Origin: Escherichia virus TH40
Strand: one strand, 5' to 3'
Length of the DNA stretch: 64,000 nt
Sequence record: MT446411.1
The notes under the pieces are model-generated. The model was not told where the DNA came from. It was given only the letters and a program-made list of their open reading frames with translations, and did not search any database. The number at the start of each line of letters is the position of its first letter. Position 1 is the stretch's first letter. Below, in pieces: positions 37,783 through 63,541 of the stretch. The position numbers were made by a program, and so were the translations under genes.

Positions 37783-39332
37783 TGACAACGACTAACACGC
37801 TAAAACACATTAGCGATAAATCCGAATATAAAACATTCGACCCGACGGGAACAGCTTTCCCGTCGACTGTTACCAACGTACAAGAGGCTTTAGGGTCTCT
37901 TAATAAAATTGCGTTAGATGGATATATCCCAGCCTCATCCGAAACGACCGCAGGACTCATCAGGCTAGCCACCACACAAGAAGTTATTGATGGTATTAGT
38001 CCAGACTCTGCAGTTACTCCAGCGACCTTAAAAGCTCGTTTAGACATTCCTACGCAAGCTACAGAAACTTATGTAGGTATTACCCGTTATGCAACCAATG
38101 CCGAAGCAATTGCCGGGACAGTAACCGATGCGGCTATTGTTCCATCTTCATTAAAAGCAACAATTGATGATGTTTTTACTGTTCGTGTTGGTACCGAAAA
38201 TAATTTGGGTGTTCTTCGTATTAGTACCGAGGATGCAGCTTTAGCTGGCACAGATGACACAACCGCTATGTCTCCGTTGAAAGTTGCTCTGGCAATTGGC
38301 AAAGCAACAGCGGCGCTTCCAACTTATTCAACTGCCACACAAACTGTTTCTGGTTTAGTACGAATTGCTACAAATGCTGAAGTGCAAGCAGGAACCCTGG
38401 GTGACGGTGTAGCAATTTCTCCAGCAGGTTTAAATGCTCGTACAGCAACACAAGACCGCGCTGGGATTATTCGTCTTGGTAATCAGTCAGAGATTAATAA
38501 CAGTGCTGATGGTGTTGCGGTAACTGGCGCAACTCTTAATGGTCGTGGAGCCACAACCGATAATCGCGGCGTCGTTAGATTAACTACTCAGGCTGGGGTT
38601 GCTCCTGGTGGTGATGGTGCCGGTGCACTGGCTTGGAATGCTGATGTAATCAACACTCGTGGTGGTCAACGAATTAATGGAAGTCTTTTTTTAGATTATA
38701 TTTCCACCGGCAATTTTGATTCCAATACAGCTCATATGGGCGGTCAATTACTTTCTACACAGCGTTATGCTTCTGAACGGGTTCCAGTTGGAACGGTGAT
38801 GATGTTCGCAGGTGATAGTGCTCCTCCTGGCTGGATTATGTGTCACGGCGGCACCGTTAATGGTGACCAATTCCCTGACTATCGAAATACTGTTGGAACT
38901 CGTTTCGGTGGCGATTGGACCAACGTCGGTATTCCTGATATGCGTGGTTTGTTTGTTCGTGGTGCTGGTACCGGTGGACATATTCTGAATAACCGCGGTC
39001 AAGATGGTTATGGCAAAGACCGTTTGGGTGTTGGTTGTGATGGTTCATGGGTCGGTGGTGTACAAGCTCAGCAAATGTCATATCATAAACACGCGGGTGG
39101 TTGGGGTGAATACCAACGTAACGAAGCTCCATTTGGTGCATCAGTTTATCAAGGTTATCTAGGTACAAGAAAATATGCAGACTGGGATAACGCTTCATAT
39201 TTTACTAACGATGGATTTGAACTCGGTGGCGGCAGAGATGCTTTAGGTACGTTAAACCGTGAAGGTCTTATTGGTTATGAAACTCGCCCATGGAATATGT
39301 CTTTAAACTATATTATCAAAATTCATTACTAA
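37782..39332 (+). CDS. 12: short tail fiber protein gp12
   Basis: 516 aa, repetitive G/A/T-rich fibre sequence. Confidence 0.88.
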   Translation: MTTTNTLKHISDKSEYKTFDPTGTAFPSTVTNVQEALGSLNKIALDGYIPASSETTAGLIRLATTQEVIDGISPDSAVTPATLKARLDIPTQATETYVGITRYATNAEAIAGTVTDAAIVPSSLKATIDDVFTVRVGTENNLGVLRISTEDAALAGTDDTTAMSPLKVALAIGKATAALPTYSTATQTVSGLVRIATNAEVQAGTLGDGVAISPAGLNARTATQDRAGIIRLGNQSEINNSADGVAVTGATLNGRGATTDNRGVVRLTTQAGVAPGGDGAGALAWNADVINTRGGQRINGSLFLDYISTGNFDSNTAHMGGQLLSTQRYASERVPVGTVMMFAGDSAPPGWIMCHGGTVNGDQFPDYRNTVGTRFGGDWTNVGIPDMRGLFVRGAGTGGHILNNRGQDGYGKDRLGVGCDGSWVGGVQAQQMSYHKHAGGWGEYQRNEAPFGASVYQGYLGTRKYADWDNASYFTNDGFELGGGRDALGTLNREGLIGYETRPWNMSLNYIIKIHY

Positions 39333-39340
39333 GGACCAAA

Positions 39341-40966
39341 ATGATTAATAAACTCAGTCTCAAAGAACTGCCGTATAGCATCGGTATTCCAGACGAAGGT
39401 CAACAGAGAATTCGTTGGATACAAAACGGCGATTGTATGACTGCGGCCAGTACCAAATATGGTCATGATGGTAATTTGAACGCCGCTGCAGTTGGCGTTC
39501 AAACAAACGTAGATACACTCGACGACAACTCAAATGCATCTAAAGAAAAAATAAACGAAATTATTGATAACGTCAATAATATTCAGGAAGCTTTGAATAT
39601 AACAACTAACACGGAAGTTGTTAAACAAATTGAAAAAAACCGTACAGATATTCTTGACCTTGATGAACGTCAATTTAATACCGAATTGTTATCAAGCGAA
39701 ACATCTGAAGACCTTAAAAAGTTAAAAGAAGATGTTGGTGTTTATGACCCGTTAACCGATTCATATTATCGCACAGTTCGTAATGACCTCGTATGGATTA
39801 AAAATGAATTAGGCCAGTATGTTGACCAAGATATAAATGGTCTCCAGGTTATCGGCAATCCGTCAAGAGGCATGAAACGTCGCATCATCGATAACAGTTC
39901 GGCTATTGTTGCCCATGGAGTTCGTATTAAGACTCTTGAGGATAATTACCATGATTCTGATGTTGGTTCTCTTAACGTAAAAGTAATTAAAATTCGCGAA
40001 GAATTGGGTGAGTCGACTTTAGCAGTAGGTAAACCAGCTGTATTTGTTCGACTGAATACTCTTGACGACAAAGTAGTCGAAATTGACGAAGATATTGCCA
40101 ATATTCAAGAAGATATCGGTTTTGGCACCGGGCTTGCAATTACAACTCGCGTTGAAAATCTTGGTGGACGTGTTTCGGTCAATGAAACAGATATTGCGAA
40201 TATCAAACCAAGACTCACTAAGGTTGAAGCTGATATCGGCACCGCTCTGGAACCATTAACAATTAATGGTCGAATCAGTGCTTTGCGTTCGGATGTTAAT
40301 GGCTTACAGGTTGTTGTTGGCCAGGATTCAAGCTCTGGTTTACGCGGAACCACTGCATGGCTTTCTCAGAGAATCGGTACAGAGCAATCTCCGGAGCCAA
40401 ACACTATCACGTATAAGTTGAATGCGACCACTACACTGGCTAACGAAACTGCATCAGGCCTTCAGGATGTACAGGCCGAAATCGGTACAAATAACACTGG
40501 TATGAAAGGCTCTATTTTGACTTTAACTAGCCAGATGAATGGTACAAACCCTAACGGTGCTACCGTGGCTGAACGTGGTGTTCTTCCGGTTGTAATTAAC
40601 TTGGATATGCTGATGGCGTCCAAGCTGAACGACGCACCATTGGACAATAAGTTATATGGTCGCAAGCAAGGAAACTGGGCTGAAATTATCGATACCAAAA
40701 CCGAGATTGATGCAATTAAACTCGATACTGCAAAAATTGCACCATTAACCACTCGCGTGACAACCCTTGAAGGTACAGTAACTCCGCTCCCTGGTCGCCT
40801 GGATGTGGCCGAGGCGAAGATAACTACTTTAGAAGGTAAAGTATCAGCCTTAGAAACAGAGCTCGCCAAAAGGCCTCCTGTCGCTCCTGCAGCTGATGGT
40901 CTCCCTTATGTGCTCGTTGATAATGCATGGGTTCTTTTGTCTACATTCGTGACTGTTGGACCATAA
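39341..40966 (+). CDS. wac: fibritin (whisker antigen control)
   Basis: ATG at 39341 (AAGGA SD); coiled-coil body; ...IRWIQNG... N-terminus and foldon-like C-terminus PYVLVDNAWVLLSTFV. Confidence 0.88.
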   Translation: MINKLSLKELPYSIGIPDEGQQRIRWIQNGDCMTAASTKYGHDGNLNAAAVGVQTNVDTLDDNSNASKEKINEIIDNVNNIQEALNITTNTEVVKQIEKNRTDILDLDERQFNTELLSSETSEDLKKLKEDVGVYDPLTDSYYRTVRNDLVWIKNELGQYVDQDINGLQVIGNPSRGMKRRIIDNSSAIVAHGVRIKTLEDNYHDSDVGSLNVKVIKIREELGESTLAVGKPAVFVRLNTLDDKVVEIDEDIANIQEDIGFGTGLAITTRVENLGGRVSVNETDIANIKPRLTKVEADIGTALEPLTINGRISALRSDVNGLQVVVGQDSSSGLRGTTAWLSQRIGTEQSPEPNTITYKLNATTTLANETASGLQDVQAEIGTNNTGMKGSILTLTSQMNGTNPNGATVAERGVLPVVINLDMLMASKLNDAPLDNKLYGRKQGNWAEIIDTKTEIDAIKLDTAKIAPLTTRVTTLEGTVTPLPGRLDVAEAKITTLEGKVSALETELAKRPPVAPAADGLPYVLVDNAWVLLSTFVTVGP

Positions 40967-40991: not shown

Positions 40992-40999
40992 TATAAATA
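40992..40999 (+). promoter_or_regulatory. T4-type late promoter TATAAATA
   Basis: exact motif upstream of gene 13. Confidence 0.6.
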
Positions 41000-41017: not shown

Positions 41018-41956
41018 ATGGCAACTGAATCATACAACCCGAAACAATTAAAAGATGCAATCCTTCGACGTCTTGGTGCTCCAATTACGAATATCGAAGT
41101 TACGACCGAACAGGTCTATGATTGCATCCAGCGTGCATTAGAATTATATGGTGAATATCATTATAATGGTTATAACAAAGGTTATCAGGCTTTTTATATC
41201 GGTCATGATGACGTTTCACAGCAGAAATTTCGCGATGGCGTTTTCGATTTAAAAGGCCGTAATATTTTTGCAGTAACGCAGATTATTCGTACTAACGTCG
41301 GTTCATTAACTTCGATGGATGGTCAAGCTACATATCCATGGTTCACAGATTTTGTTCTAGGACTGGCCGGGATTAACGGTGGAATGGGTAGCTCATGTAA
41401 CAGCTTTGGTCCAAATGCTTTTGGTGCAGACCTTGGTTATTTTACACAGCTTATGCAATATCGTTCAATGATGCAAGACCTGATGGTTCCGCTTCCGGAT
41501 TACTGGTATAATGACGATACTGAACAACTTAAAATTATGGGTAACTTCCGACAGGGAGATGTGATTGTAATTGAAGTTTATACCAAATCGTATAACGGCG
41601 TGGATTCAATGGTAGGCAATACAGCTGGATATGGTTTTGCTTCGGCCGATTGTGATAATCCGTGGAATGCTGGCGCACAGTGGGATAACCCGGCGCGCAG
41701 AATAAGCGGCATGAGAGCAGGTGAGGACCTTGGACTTCAAGATGGCGCATACAACAACCGTTGGGTGAAAGACTATGCCACGGCGCTCGTTAAGGAAGTT
41801 AACGGCAACGTATTGGCTAAACACCAGGGGATGATGATGCCAGGTGGTACCACGGTTGATGGTGTTCGTTTAATTGAAGAAGCTCGTATGGAAAAAGAAC
41901 GTCTTCGTGAGGAACTTGACCTGCTGGATGCACCGGCTGGAATACTAATTGGGTGA
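41018..41956 (+). CDS. 13: neck protein gp13
   Basis: 312 aa (T4 gp13 309 aa). Confidence 0.88.
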
Positions 41957-41959
41957 TTA

Positions 41960-42595
41960 ATGACTACTTACTATAGACTTTATGTATCAACATTTGAAAC
42001 ATCTAATGGGATAATGGTATATGGCGGTAAACGCCATTCACATTATGAAGATTCTAAAGCGGATAGTTATTTCGGTTCTGGTACTATTGTCAAGCGAGCT
42101 AAACAAAAATACGGAAGGAAATGTTTAGTCGACATTACATGGTCTAAACCTTTTGAATCGCCTGCCCTATTAAAAGAAGCCGAAGCCTTACTAGTCAGTG
42201 AGCTTTTAGAAAGTTTCGATAATTGTGCAAATTTACATCCAACAGGGGGAGGCGGACCAGAAGGTTATAGTTGTCCAGAAGATTCCCCTGCCTTTGGTAA
42301 AAAGAGAACAGCAGAATCAAGAAAACGAATGTCAGACGCAGCAAAACAAAGGGAATGGTCAGAAGAAGGATTAAAACGTCGTAAAGAATCAACAGCTCGA
42401 ATGTGGATTGATTTTAAGGACAGACATCCAGATTTTTCTGATGATAAAAATCCGGCCGCGCGTAAAATTATTACCGGCGACCTAGAATTTTGTACCGGAA
42501 GAAAATGTGCAGAATATTATTCGATAACACCGGCGACGGTCATTTACAGATGTAAAAGTACAGCCGAAAAATGGAAATTATGGAATTATGCGTAA
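41960..42595 (+). mobile_element. freestanding GIY-YIG-family homing endonuclease gene (Seg / I-TevI-like)
   Basis: 211 aa; N-terminal YRLYV...NGIMVYGG...YFGSG (GIY-YIG-like), NUMOD-like basic linker, C-terminal [34 protein letters not shown] aligning with I-TevI DNA-binding tail FDCAADAARHFKISSGLVTYRVKSDKWNWFYI; inserted between genes 13 and 14. Confidence 0.6.
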
Positions 42596-43376
42596 TTCTT
42601 ATGATGCAAGCTTATTCGCTCGGCTCGAAGATGGAACCGGGTATGACAATACAAACTCGTCAGAGATACTCAACCAATATGTAAACTTTATGCATCATGA
42701 AAATACCCAGACTTTAGCAGATGCTATTGTTGCTGAAAGTATTCAGATGCGCGGAATGTCTCTCTATTATATCCCAAGACAATTCGTTAAACCGGATTTA
42801 TTATTCGGTGAAGACCTCCAGAGTAAATTTGATAAAGCATGGAAATTTGCTGGATATCTGGATACGTTCGATGCATATCAGGGTGATGGTTCTATCTTTA
42901 GTAAATTCGGTATGACTGTGAACGATGAAATTACAATATCGATTAACCCTAATCTGTTTAAACACCAATGTAACGGAACTGAACCTATCGCCGGGGATTT
43001 GATTTATTTCCCTCTTGATAACAGCCTGTTCGAAATTACATGGGTGCAACCTTATGACCCATTCTATCAGGTAGGTCAAAATGCTATCCGTAAAATCACC
43101 GCGAGCAAATACATTTACTCCGGGGAAGAACTTAAACCTGAATTGCAACGGAATGAAGGTATTAATATTTCAGAATTCAGCGAGCTCGATTTACAACCAA
43201 TCCACAATATTGATGGCCTTACAGATATCAGCGATATCCCTTATGCTGAATCCAATGAGATTAACGCAGAAGCAGCTGAATATGTTAAACCATATTTTGT
43301 GCAGAATGGTCGTGGACTTGAGGCTCCACCTAAGGCAAAACAGGATAGCTTTGACGATAGTTTCTTTGATGAATAA
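42588..43376 (+). CDS. 14: neck protein gp14
   Basis: 262 aa (T4 gp14 256 aa). Confidence 0.85.
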
Positions 43377-44295: not shown

Positions 44296-46602
<2,307 letters not shown>

Positions 46603-61295: not shown

Positions 61296-61313
61296 GATGA
61301 ACCTCGGTTAGTG

Positions 61314-61321
61314 TATAAATA
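61314..61321 (+). promoter_or_regulatory. T4-type late promoter TATAAATA
   Basis: exact motif 29 nt upstream of uvsW ATG. Confidence 0.6.
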
Positions 61322-61349
61322 TAGATATATTTATTACCTTGGAATCATC

Positions 61350-62849
61350 ATGGATATTAAAATCAACTTTCTAAATTTTAGTCACGTGCATGTTGAATGT
61401 GAAGATGGAATCTTCTACGAACTCCGTGATTACTTCAGCTTCGAAGCTGAAAACTATCGCTTCAATCCAAAATTCAAGCAGGGAGTTTGGGACGGACGAA
61501 TCCGCCTCCTGGATTACAATCGTAAATTACCATACGGTTTGGTTAATCAAATTAAAAAGTTCGCTGACCAGTTTGGCTATTCATTCTGGATTGACCCACA
61601 AATCACCGAGAAAGAAGAAATCTCTCGCGAAGAATTCGACAAATGGGTCGAGTCAAAAGAAATCTATTCAGGCAATACTAAGATAACGCCCCATTGGTAT
61701 CAATCTGACGCCGTATATGATGGTCTGGTCAACAGAAGAAAGATTCTGAACTTACCTACGTCTGCAGGTAAAAGTCTCATCCAGGCGCTTCTGGCGCGAT
61801 ATTATCTCGAGAACTATGAAGGCAAGGTACTTATCCTTGTTCCTACAACCGCGCTTGTTGACCAGATGATTAATGACTTTGTTGATTATCGTCTGTTCCC
61901 TCGTGAAGCTTGTCTGGGTATTCGTTCTGGTACCAAACGCGATTCTGATGCGATGATTTATGTATCGACTTATCAGACGGCTGTAAAACAACCTAAAGAA
62001 TGGTTTGAACAGTTTGGTCAGTTTATGAATGACGAATGTCATATGGCTACAGGTAAATCAATTTCGACGGTTATCGAAGGCCTTACGAATTGTATGTTTA
62101 AATTTGGTTTGTCCGGTTCACTCCGTGACGGCAAAGCCAACCTTATGCAATATATGGGTCTGTTTGGTGATATCTTTAAACCAGTATCAACATCTAAATT
62201 GATGGAAGATGGTCAGGTCACTGACCTTAAAATAAATAGTATTTTCCTTCGTTACCCTGATGAATTTACCGTTAAAATGAAAGGTAAAACTTATCAGGAT
62301 GAAATTAAGGTAATTACAAAAGCTACACGCCGAAATAAATGGGTAACAAATCTTGCTCTCAAGCTTGCTAAAAAAGATGAAAACGTCTTTTTGATGTTTA
62401 AGAATATCGAGCACGGTAAATCGATGTTTGAAATGCTTAAGGAAGCTGGTCATGAGAAAGTGTATTATGTTTCCGGGGAAGTTGATACCGAAACTCGTAA
62501 TGCATTAAAGGTCATGGCAGAGAATGGAAAGGGAATTATCGTTGTAGCTTCATATGGCGTATTCTCGACGGGTATTTCCGTTAAAAACCTCCATCATATT
62601 ATTTTCGCCCACCCGGTCAAGTCAAAGGTAATTGTACTCCAGACAATTGGTCGTGTGCTTCGAAAACATGAATCCAAATCACAAGCAAACGTTTTTGATA
62701 TCGTGGATGATATGGGGGTTAAACCTAAATCGGTAAATGCTAAAAAGAAATATGTTCATTTGAACTTTGCCCTAAAACATGGTCTTGAACGTATACAACG
62801 ATATGCTGATGAACGTTTTAACTATGTAATTAAACAGGTGGAAATTTGA
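61350..62849 (+). CDS. uvsW: UvsW ATP-dependent DNA/RNA helicase
   Basis: From ATG 61350: MDIKINFLNFSHVHVECEDGIFYELRDYF..., DExH helicase motifs (LPTSAGKS, MNDECH) match T4 UvsW. Confidence 0.92.
   Translation: MDIKINFLNFSHVHVECEDGIFYELRDYFSFEAENYRFNPKFKQGVWDGRIRLLDYNRKLPYGLVNQIKKFADQFGYSFWIDPQITEKEEISREEFDKWVESKEIYSGNTKITPHWYQSDAVYDGLVNRRKILNLPTSAGKSLIQALLARYYLENYEGKVLILVPTTALVDQMINDFVDYRLFPREACLGIRSGTKRDSDAMIYVSTYQTAVKQPKEWFEQFGQFMNDECHMATGKSISTVIEGLTNCMFKFGLSGSLRDGKANLMQYMGLFGDIFKPVSTSKLMEDGQVTDLKINSIFLRYPDEFTVKMKGKTYQDEIKVITKATRRNKWVTNLALKLAKKDENVFLMFKNIEHGKSMFEMLKEAGHEKVYYVSGEVDTETRNALKVMAENGKGIIVVASYGVFSTGISVKNLHHIIFAHPVKSKVIVLQTIGRVLRKHESKSQANVFDIVDDMGVKPKSVNAKKKYVHLNFALKHGLERIQRYADERFNYVIKQVEI
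62827..62845 (+). repeat. 19-bp direct repeat, copy 1 (3' end of uvsW)
   Basis: taattaaacaggtggaaat, identical to 63519..63537. Confidence 0.8.
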
Positions 62850-63541
62850 ATTATCAAAAAATATATGATGATTTAATTGGGAGTCGAAAGGCTTCCAAAC
62901 CGATTGGATATACAGAATCTCACCATATCATTCCAGAATGTATGGGTGGGCCTGATACACAAGAAAACAGAGTCAACCTTACTCCGGAAGAACATTTCAT
63001 TGCACATAAATTATTGGCCAAAATTCATCCCAATCATTACGGTCTTATAAAGGCCGTCATTGCTATGGGTATGAGCTCTCGGACACACCAACGACAATTT
63101 AATAAATCGTATGGATGGGAGCGTAGACAAATGTCAGTTCTTCAAACGGGTGAAGGTAATCCTTTTTATGGTAAGCACCATACTGAAGAACATAAAGAAT
63201 ATATGAGTCAATTATTGAAGGGTCGCAAAATAACTTGGGCTGATAAAATATCCGTGACAAAGAAAGCGAATCCGTATAAATACTCTCAAGCACAATGTCA
63301 AGCTATATCAGAAAGAAATAAAGGTGAAGGCAATTGGATGTATGGTAAATCACATACACCAGAAGCATCGAAGAAAATTTCAGATAAAGCGAAAGAACGT
63401 TATAAAGACCCGTCTAAAAATCCGGCAGCTAAAAAGGTTGTTATAGGTGGAGTTGAATATGGTTCAATGAAACAAGCTTCAGAAGCTACGGGGCTTTCTA
63501 AATATAAAATTAGAAATTTAATTAAACAGGTGGAAATATAA
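62846..63541 (+). mobile_element. freestanding HNH-family homing endonuclease gene with NUMOD-like repeats
   Basis: 231 aa; HNH core ESHHIIPECMGG...ENRVNLTPEEHFIAH, NUMOD-like GNPFYGKHHTEEHK and GNWMYGKSHTPEASKK, helix-turn-helix-like C-terminus; TTG start overlapping uvsW stop; inserted between uvsW and uvsW.1. Confidence 0.65.
63519..63537 (+). repeat. 19-bp direct repeat, copy 2 (3' end of HNH gene)
   Basis: taattaaacaggtggaaat; both uvsW and the HNH ORF end with residues ...IKQVEI. Confidence 0.8.

Follow-up and report, generated by a model that had tools for sequence, protein, structure and literature searches.

The junction between neck genes 13 and 14 of Escherichia virus TH40 (MT446411.1) encodes a 211-aa protein, and the question raised by this locus is what that protein is and how its gene came to lie within a conserved block of late genes. 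Selfish homing endonuclease genes are abundant in T4-like phage genomes, and a preliminary description had proposed an additional mobile insertion at this point. The window analyzed here is a 64,000-nucleotide stretch of this phage, and all positions given below refer to it. Based on the evidence presented here, it is very probable that the gene belongs to the Seg class of T4 homing endonuclease genes, stands free rather than within an intron, and spreads by classic homing.

The gene is a single ORF with an ATG start that occupies positions 41,960 to 42,595 on the + strand, the coordinates already proposed for it, and its designation as a free-standing homing endonuclease gene draws on the ORF listing, a match to the "homing endonuclease" family PHROG 314 (1.8e-29), and matches to homing endonuclease (HEase) models of PADLOC. 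Eight phage records contain an identical or nearly identical protein, approximately 40 further records contain homologues with 48–59% identity, and a profile search of 1.84 billion representative proteins returned 7069 relatives at E≤1e-3, so that the ORF is far beyond what chance would produce. The source phage is a T4-type member of Gaprivervirus in the SP18/VR7 group, and its 13–14 region is 98.4% identical to that of Yersinia phage vB_YenM_P8 and 95.5% identical to that of Shigella phage SP18. The identity of both neighbors as neck genes, as proposed previously, is borne out by family matches: gene 13 (neck, head-tail adaptor Ad2; 41,018 to 41,956, + strand) matches PHROG 211 (4e-42), and gene 14 (neck, head closure Hc2; 42,588 to 43,376, + strand) matches Pfam T4_neck-protein (1e-101) and the PHROG for head closure Hc2. 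The spacer between the TGA of gene 13 and the ATG of the endonuclease gene is TTA (41,957 to 41,959), which is 3 nt rather than the 4 nt given in the preliminary description. At the other end, the endonuclease TAA (42,593 to 42,595) lies beyond the gene 14 ATG at 42,588, an overlap of 8 nt (ATGCGTAA) that agrees with the overlap noted earlier. The gene 14 ATG is thus embedded in the last codons of the endonuclease gene (WNYA*), with the N terminus of gp14 replaced (MRNSY versus MATY), and the endonuclease ATG sits at the position of the gene 14 start of insert-free phages. The absence of any gene here in T4 was also correctly anticipated, as gene 13 ends at 94,553 and gene 14 starts at 94,555 in NC_000866, without a gene between them.

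For expression, the gene appears to rely entirely on its surroundings. A T4-type late promoter motif (TATAAATA; 40,992 to 40,999, + strand) lies upstream of gene 13, and motif scans, which found 21 matches to the late promoter motif in the window versus 5.3 expected, place the next one on the + strand at 46,096. These scans found neither a promoter nor a terminator belonging to the endonuclease gene itself and no terminator-like sites between 40,800 and 43,600. With the only nearby late promoter located before gene 13 and no terminators, the gene is thus a cassette that lacks a promoter and is read as part of the late 13-14-15 message, and its transcript probably originates at the motif at 40,992 to 40,999. 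Several seg and mob genes of T4 are likewise promoterless cassettes, among them segF, which is served by an upstream host promoter and similarly overlaps its neighbor (PMC2988022). Only a weak GGA-type ribosome-binding sequence is found near the gene 14 ATG, and RNA structure over the starts and ribosome-binding sites of the endonuclease gene or gene 14 was not significant (z-scores of -0.3 to +0.6). Given the 8-nt overlap, translation of gene 14 may be coupled to that of the endonuclease.

The N-terminal half of the protein is a Seg-type GIY-YIG nuclease domain (residues 1–100; 41,960 to 42,259, + strand), as indicated by its conserved residues, profile matching, a structural model, and BLASTP alignments to the T4 Seg proteins. 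The first tyrosine of the GIY-YIG motif, on beta-strand 1, is Y8 (41,981 to 41,983), which lies in YRLYV and corresponds to Y6 of I-TevI, and it is invariant in alignments of both 32 and 42 relatives. In the second motif, on beta-strand 2 and within the 10–13 residues after the first that the superfamily shows, V-Y21-G-G23 corresponds to V-Y17-V-G19 of I-TevI, with both Y21 (42,020 to 42,022) and G23 invariant. E75 (42,182 to 42,184) aligns with Glu75 of I-TevI, the position of the catalytic metal-binding glutamate, and is likewise invariant, as are Y37, G39-S40-G41, and G52 in the alignments of 32 to 42 relatives, while N91 (42,230 to 42,232; all four on the + strand) shows no variation among the 32 sequences of the head alignment and is conserved at ≥90% across the alignment of 42. 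A profile trimmed to the head domain found the catalytic domain of I-TevI (1ln0) as its best PDB match, and although this match is weak (E=0.012), the alignment pairs Y8 with Y6, Y21 with Y17, E75 with E75, and N91 with N90. The AlphaFold model of residues 1–102 (pLDDT 90.3, pTM 0.79) follows the order beta-beta-alpha-beta-alpha and displays the alpha/beta fold with a three-stranded sheet that characterizes GIY-YIG domains. BLASTP against the T4 proteins ranked SegF closest (33% over 129 aa), followed by SegC, SegB, SegE, SegA, and SegD, and its match to I-TevI was confined to the tail.

Searches that started from the single sequence or from untrimmed models were less revealing. The Pfam scan of the protein found no GIY-YIG model (PF01541, PF19835) at E≤1, NCBIfam TIGR01453, a group I intron endonuclease model, reached 17.9 bits versus a cut-off of 56 and did so in the tail region only, phmmer of the protein against PDB sequences returned no match, and Foldseek with the full-length model returned no significant match. 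The profile built from the wide alignment detected only low-complexity noise from the charged linker among PDB sequences, and trimming to the head domain was needed for the match to 1ln0. Even within the family, Pfam SegE_GIY-YIG (PF19835) was matched by only 4 of the 42 relatives. The missed curated GIY-YIG cut-offs are a failure of model sensitivity and no argument against the fold. The presence of both a GIY-YIG domain and the tail domain described below is established by family profiles and structure prediction, not by single-sequence Pfam scans, which stay below threshold. Regarding the N terminus, which had been described as GIY-YIG-like but degenerate, the profile, the invariant residues, and the model support the GIY-YIG assignment and not the degeneracy, as this is an ordinary Seg-type variant. 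The position of Arg27 of I-TevI aligns with His28, is occupied by K, R, T, or H across the relatives, and has K24, R25, and H26 close by. BLASTP alignments show the same GxH/KxS pattern at this position in the T4 Seg proteins, which are listed as active (PMC2988022).

The failure of curated GIY-YIG models to detect the protein, together with the lack of a clear equivalent of Arg27, could instead be taken as signs of a decayed or domesticated endonuclease, one that now serves as a DNA binder or as a translated leader feeding the gene 14 start and that neither cuts nor homes. Such a fate has precedents among the defective endonucleases of T4, for example I-TevIII (by annotation), and the gene 14 ATG within the last endonuclease codons, with its weak GGA-type site, is also compatible with it, as gene 14 expression may depend on translation of the endonuclease. 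A leader peptide, however, would have no need of a conserved 100-residue nuclease fold, and Y8, Y21, E75, and N91 would not be expected to stay invariant even in distant relatives. Considering these points and the selection and distribution data below, we regard decay or domestication as unlikely.

The C-terminal part of the protein is related to the DNA-binding portion of I-TevI, as the preliminary description had recognized from an alignment of the C terminus. A profile built from 10 family sequences matches the I-TevI DNA-binding domain (1i3j) with E=3.4e-5 over I-TevI residues 186–242, which comprise the minor-groove helix and the helix-turn-helix, and the homology thus falls within the C-terminal helix-turn-helix region of I-TevI (residues ~186–245). 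The corresponding I-TevI-type helix-turn-helix DNA-binding domain occupies residues ~152–211 (42,413 to 42,592, + strand), an assignment drawn from the family profile and from homologues. The endonuclease itself is below threshold for Pfam I-TevI_DNA-bd (PF20987), and its homologues with 52–59% identity score 21–26 bits against a cut-off of 27. Between head and tail lies a NUMOD3-like motif (residues 109–125; 42,284 to 42,334, + strand), which is also sub-threshold in this protein (Pfam PF07460, 16.2 bits; cut-off of 20.4) and reaches up to 2.3e-22 in relatives. Reading the sequence from residue 100 to 160 reveals no CxC...CxxC zinc-finger pattern, with C105 as the sole cysteine there, and given this absence, the region would work like the I-TevI tail and not as a copy of the full I-TevI linker.

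The endonuclease therefore combines a SegF-like GIY-YIG head with an I-TevI-like tail, and it differs from each of the known proteins that it resembles. SegF is the closest T4 paralogue of the head (86 bits with the domain profile) and shares the motif set FYRTYI...YAGKHxS...DxYxGSG...KYG...E...N..GG.GG, but its site is soc/56 rather than 13/14, and it has been characterized biochemically, whereas the protein in the window is known from its sequence. Past the head, the only likeness to SegF that emerged was a profile match reaching approximately position 161 and some brief BLASTP segments without significance; the I-TevI-type tail is established for the window protein only. I-TevI, the td intron endonuclease of T4 (1ln0, 1i3j, 1t2t), is intron-encoded and 245 aa long, in contrast to the free-standing gene and 211-aa protein found here; its head is only remotely similar, its Arg27 is not conserved in the window protein, and its zinc finger has no counterpart in the window linker. 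The GIY-YIG head of T4 SegC is 30% identical over 126 aa, but T4 segC lies between genes 5.1 and 5.3 (140 aa), and SegF is the closer paralogue.

Comparison of the 13/14 junction among close relatives reveals a clear signature of mobility and yields exact boundaries for the insert. Among 32 close Gaprivervirus records, the insert is present in 8 and absent from 24. Where the insert is absent, gene 13 ends and gene 14 begins in a clean TAATG overlap (...GGTGGGCTAATGGCTACWTATGAC...), and the insert-free 13/14 junction of UPEC07 or VR7 reads ...CCGACTCCTATATTGGTGGGCTAATGGCTACTTATGACGCAAGATTATTCGCCCGGCTCGAAGACGG... The insert-free phage UPEC07 is mostly 98–100% identical to the window over the surrounding ±3 kb, with 90–97% in a few 100-nt windows, and approximately 85% identical in the 100 nt on each side of the insert. 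SP18, which carries the insert on a backbone that is 91–97% identical in genes 13 and 14 and ~60% identical in wac, has an insert 99–100% identical to that of the window and a downstream flank that is 100% identical.

Both flanks are linked to the insert. Downstream, the first ~85 nt of gene 14 (42,596 to 42,680, + strand) contain at least 13 substitutions compared with all insert-free relatives, a cluster found in 8/8 insert-carrying and 0/24 insert-free records, and a 120-nt probe for this flank matches all 8 insert-carrying records at ≥97.5% and all 24 insert-free records at 86–88%. The region is a candidate co-conversion tract, possibly including changes that confer immunity, and such complete linkage is as expected for co-conversion tracts or cleavage-immunity changes. 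Upstream, the linked flank together with the 3-nt spacer spans 41,935 to 41,959 (+ strand), with the last 7 codons of gene 13 diverged (PAGILIG* versus PTPILVG* in insert-free relatives), and this window-type flank is common to the window, SP18, P8, M719, and RZ but not VR26. The C terminus of gene 13 in the window is closer to the PPAGILVG* of Mosigvirus than to the PTPILVG* of its own genus. There are hints that the upstream flank may have been co-converted from a donor outside Gaprivervirus, and no donor of the insert-linked flank was found among the insert-free phages in the collection. The exact-site polymorphism among near-identical genomes and the insert-linked flank substitutions are consistent with the additional mobile insertion that had been proposed for this junction.

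The same distribution bears on the possibility that the gene is ancestral and non-mobile, with the insert-free genomes having arisen by repeated precise deletion. The occurrence of homologues at the same junction in at least five genera can be read as ancient vertical inheritance, but the empty sites are perfect, with TAATG in Gaprivervirus or TAATATG in Mosigvirus and T4 and the MATY start intact, and the empty state is that of the majority, in 24/32 and ~140/150 records, respectively. In addition, occupancy differs between near-identical backbones, while distant backbones share a 99–100% identical insert and a 100% identical downstream flank, and the dS between alleles (0.37) is far above that of the host backbones. 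An ancestral gene lost by repeated deletion is therefore very improbable.

The allele of VR26 provides a second view of the insert. It has the native upstream flank, and its endonuclease gene opens with gene 14's own ATGGCTACATAT. A total of 48 nucleotides distinguish the allele of the window from that of VR26, and judging from this divergence, the two Gaprivervirus alleles predate the divergence of their backbones. The dN/dS between them is 0.05, and the endonuclease is therefore under strong purifying selection. This value, which applies across the whole ORF, nuclease head included, is difficult to reconcile with decay, as is a patchy distribution at odds with backbone relatedness; the complete linkage of the flanks is likewise the product to be expected of ongoing or recent homing rather than of an endonuclease that has ceased to cut.

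A classic homing cycle would account for these observations. When a carrier and an insert-free relative infect the same cell, the tail would bind the conserved gene 13/gene 14 junction, and the GIY-YIG head would then cut near the bound junction. Recombination-dependent repair would copy the endonuclease gene along with ~25 nt of upstream and ~85 nt of downstream flank. The carrier would be protected both because the insert splits the site and because the flank substitutions alter it, and the endonuclease would supply gene 14 with a replacement start codon within its own last codons. In this scheme, we infer that the protein cleaves DNA, where its recognition and cleavage site lies, and that the carrier is immune. 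The protein might instead serve mainly in competition or exclusion, by degrading DNA from co-infecting or superinfecting phages generally rather than copying itself into a single site. However, the I-TevI-type site-specific tail, the fixed site across genera, and the linked co-conversion tracts all point to site-specific homing, and marker exclusion would be a by-product of the same homing mechanism. Membership in a defence system was considered and rejected, since PADLOC gives homing endonuclease models only. A general exclusion nuclease is the most improbable of the explanations weighed here, and all three alternatives to intron-less homing fit the data worse than it does.

The 13/14 junction is also occupied outside Gaprivervirus. 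In Mosigvirus-type phages, an insert is present in ~13 of 150 records, and comparison of F2 with BEU50 and G2285 places it after the fourth codon of gene 14 (MATY); gene 14 has acquired a new start (MSTY) within the final endonuclease codons, and the next 30 nt contain ~10 substitutions. The VR26 and Mosigvirus alleles both open with ATG-GCN-ACN-TAY of gene 14. Homologues with 48–57% identity lie at the 13/14 junction in Slopekvirus (KpF2, phT4A), Krischvirus (G5211), and Dhakavirus (vB_EcoM_005). The gene 14 ATG always lies within or directly next to the conserved C-terminal W-(N/S/R)-Y codons. The Dhakavirus ESCO10 (Escherichia phage vB_EcoM_ESCO10) carries an HNH-headed endonuclease at this junction (L021:1174-1818), and other Dhakaviruses carry the GIY-YIG version, namely vB_EcoM_005 and, by its annotation, MX01.

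The ESCO10 endonuclease matches that of the window in its insertion site and in the WNY/ATG overlap with gene 14, and its NUMOD3 and I-TevI-type tail is 32% identical to the window tail over 111 aa (E of 1e-13). Its head, however, is HNH/MobE-like rather than GIY-YIG, with the motif HHIVPK...N...H, a Pfam HNH score of 20.1 bits, and 42–49% identity to MobE-type genes. The tail homology and the shared junction support the tail as the determinant of junction targeting, and the comparison of these sequences suggests that nuclease heads may have been swapped on a shared DNA-binding tail. A broader reading, which we offer only tentatively and consider somewhat doubtful, is that the 13/14 junction is a shared docking site for a modular family of endonucleases, in which the tail and the embedded gene 14 start are conserved while the head can be exchanged in place, and in which the cassette copies the first codons of gene 14, employs its translation start, and renders gene 14 expression dependent on translation of the cassette itself. 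The heads at such a site would be GIY-YIG in Gaprivervirus, Mosigvirus-type phages, Slopekvirus, Krischvirus, and some Dhakavirus, and HNH in ESCO10. If this is true, the cost of the cassette would be hidden, and its precise loss would be harder.

The call of a homing endonuclease at 13/14 is already in public records, and the presence of the gene is unsurprising. The protein is 100% identical to SP18 gp176, annotated as "segC homing endonuclease, similar to SegC of phage Phi1", and proteins annotated "homing endonuclease" are 100% identical in P8 and pEC-M719-6WT.2 and 99.5% identical in RZ. The segC name is a label of similarity and not of orthology, because T4 segC lies elsewhere and SegF is closer, and with regard to naming, the head is nearer SegF and the tail nearer I-TevI. 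Our literature search found no paper on an endonuclease gene at the 13/14 junction, and a table of mobile elements in a T4 review contains no endonuclease gene at this position (PMC2988022). The gene adds one more Seg-type homing endonuclease to the T4-like catalogue, which is a modest gain. Searched as single sequences, members of this whole subfamily escape the curated GIY-YIG profiles, and their genes therefore tend to receive "hypothetical" labels. The near-identical phage pairs with and without the insert offer a ready system in which to map a new GIY-YIG target site within an essential late gene, and together with the HNH-headed counterpart at the same site they make it possible to study how nuclease domains are exchanged on a common DNA-binding module.

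Several existing records differ in how they annotate this block. In the SP18 record, gene 14 starts 95 nt past the endonuclease stop, which gives a shortened 228-aa product, and in the VR26 record, the endonuclease begins at the internal Met19 and loses the first GIY-YIG strand. Product names in the 13/14 block are shifted by at least one gene in the JQD51 and ESCO10 records.

Elsewhere in the window, a second putative homing endonuclease gene (62,846 to 63,541, + strand; 231 aa, TTG start, open frame from 62,834) directly follows a uvsW-like helicase gene (61,311 to 62,849). Its product contains a pair of NUMOD3 motifs (67.9 bits) and shares 31.8% identity over 236 aa with the HNH/Mob-type endonuclease of ESCO10, and it also aligns with the tail portion of the family profile built for the 13/14 endonuclease. 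Upstream of gene 13, wac (fibritin; 39,290 to 40,966) is strongly mosaic, with 36–68% identity to SP18, VR7, and VR20 and large indels, and is mostly 93–100% identical to UPEC07 and P8, with one 100-nt window at 90%; the adjoining gene 13 is >90% identical in all five of these phages. The wac ATG at 39,290 overlaps the end of gene 12, and some records annotate its start ~50 nt downstream.
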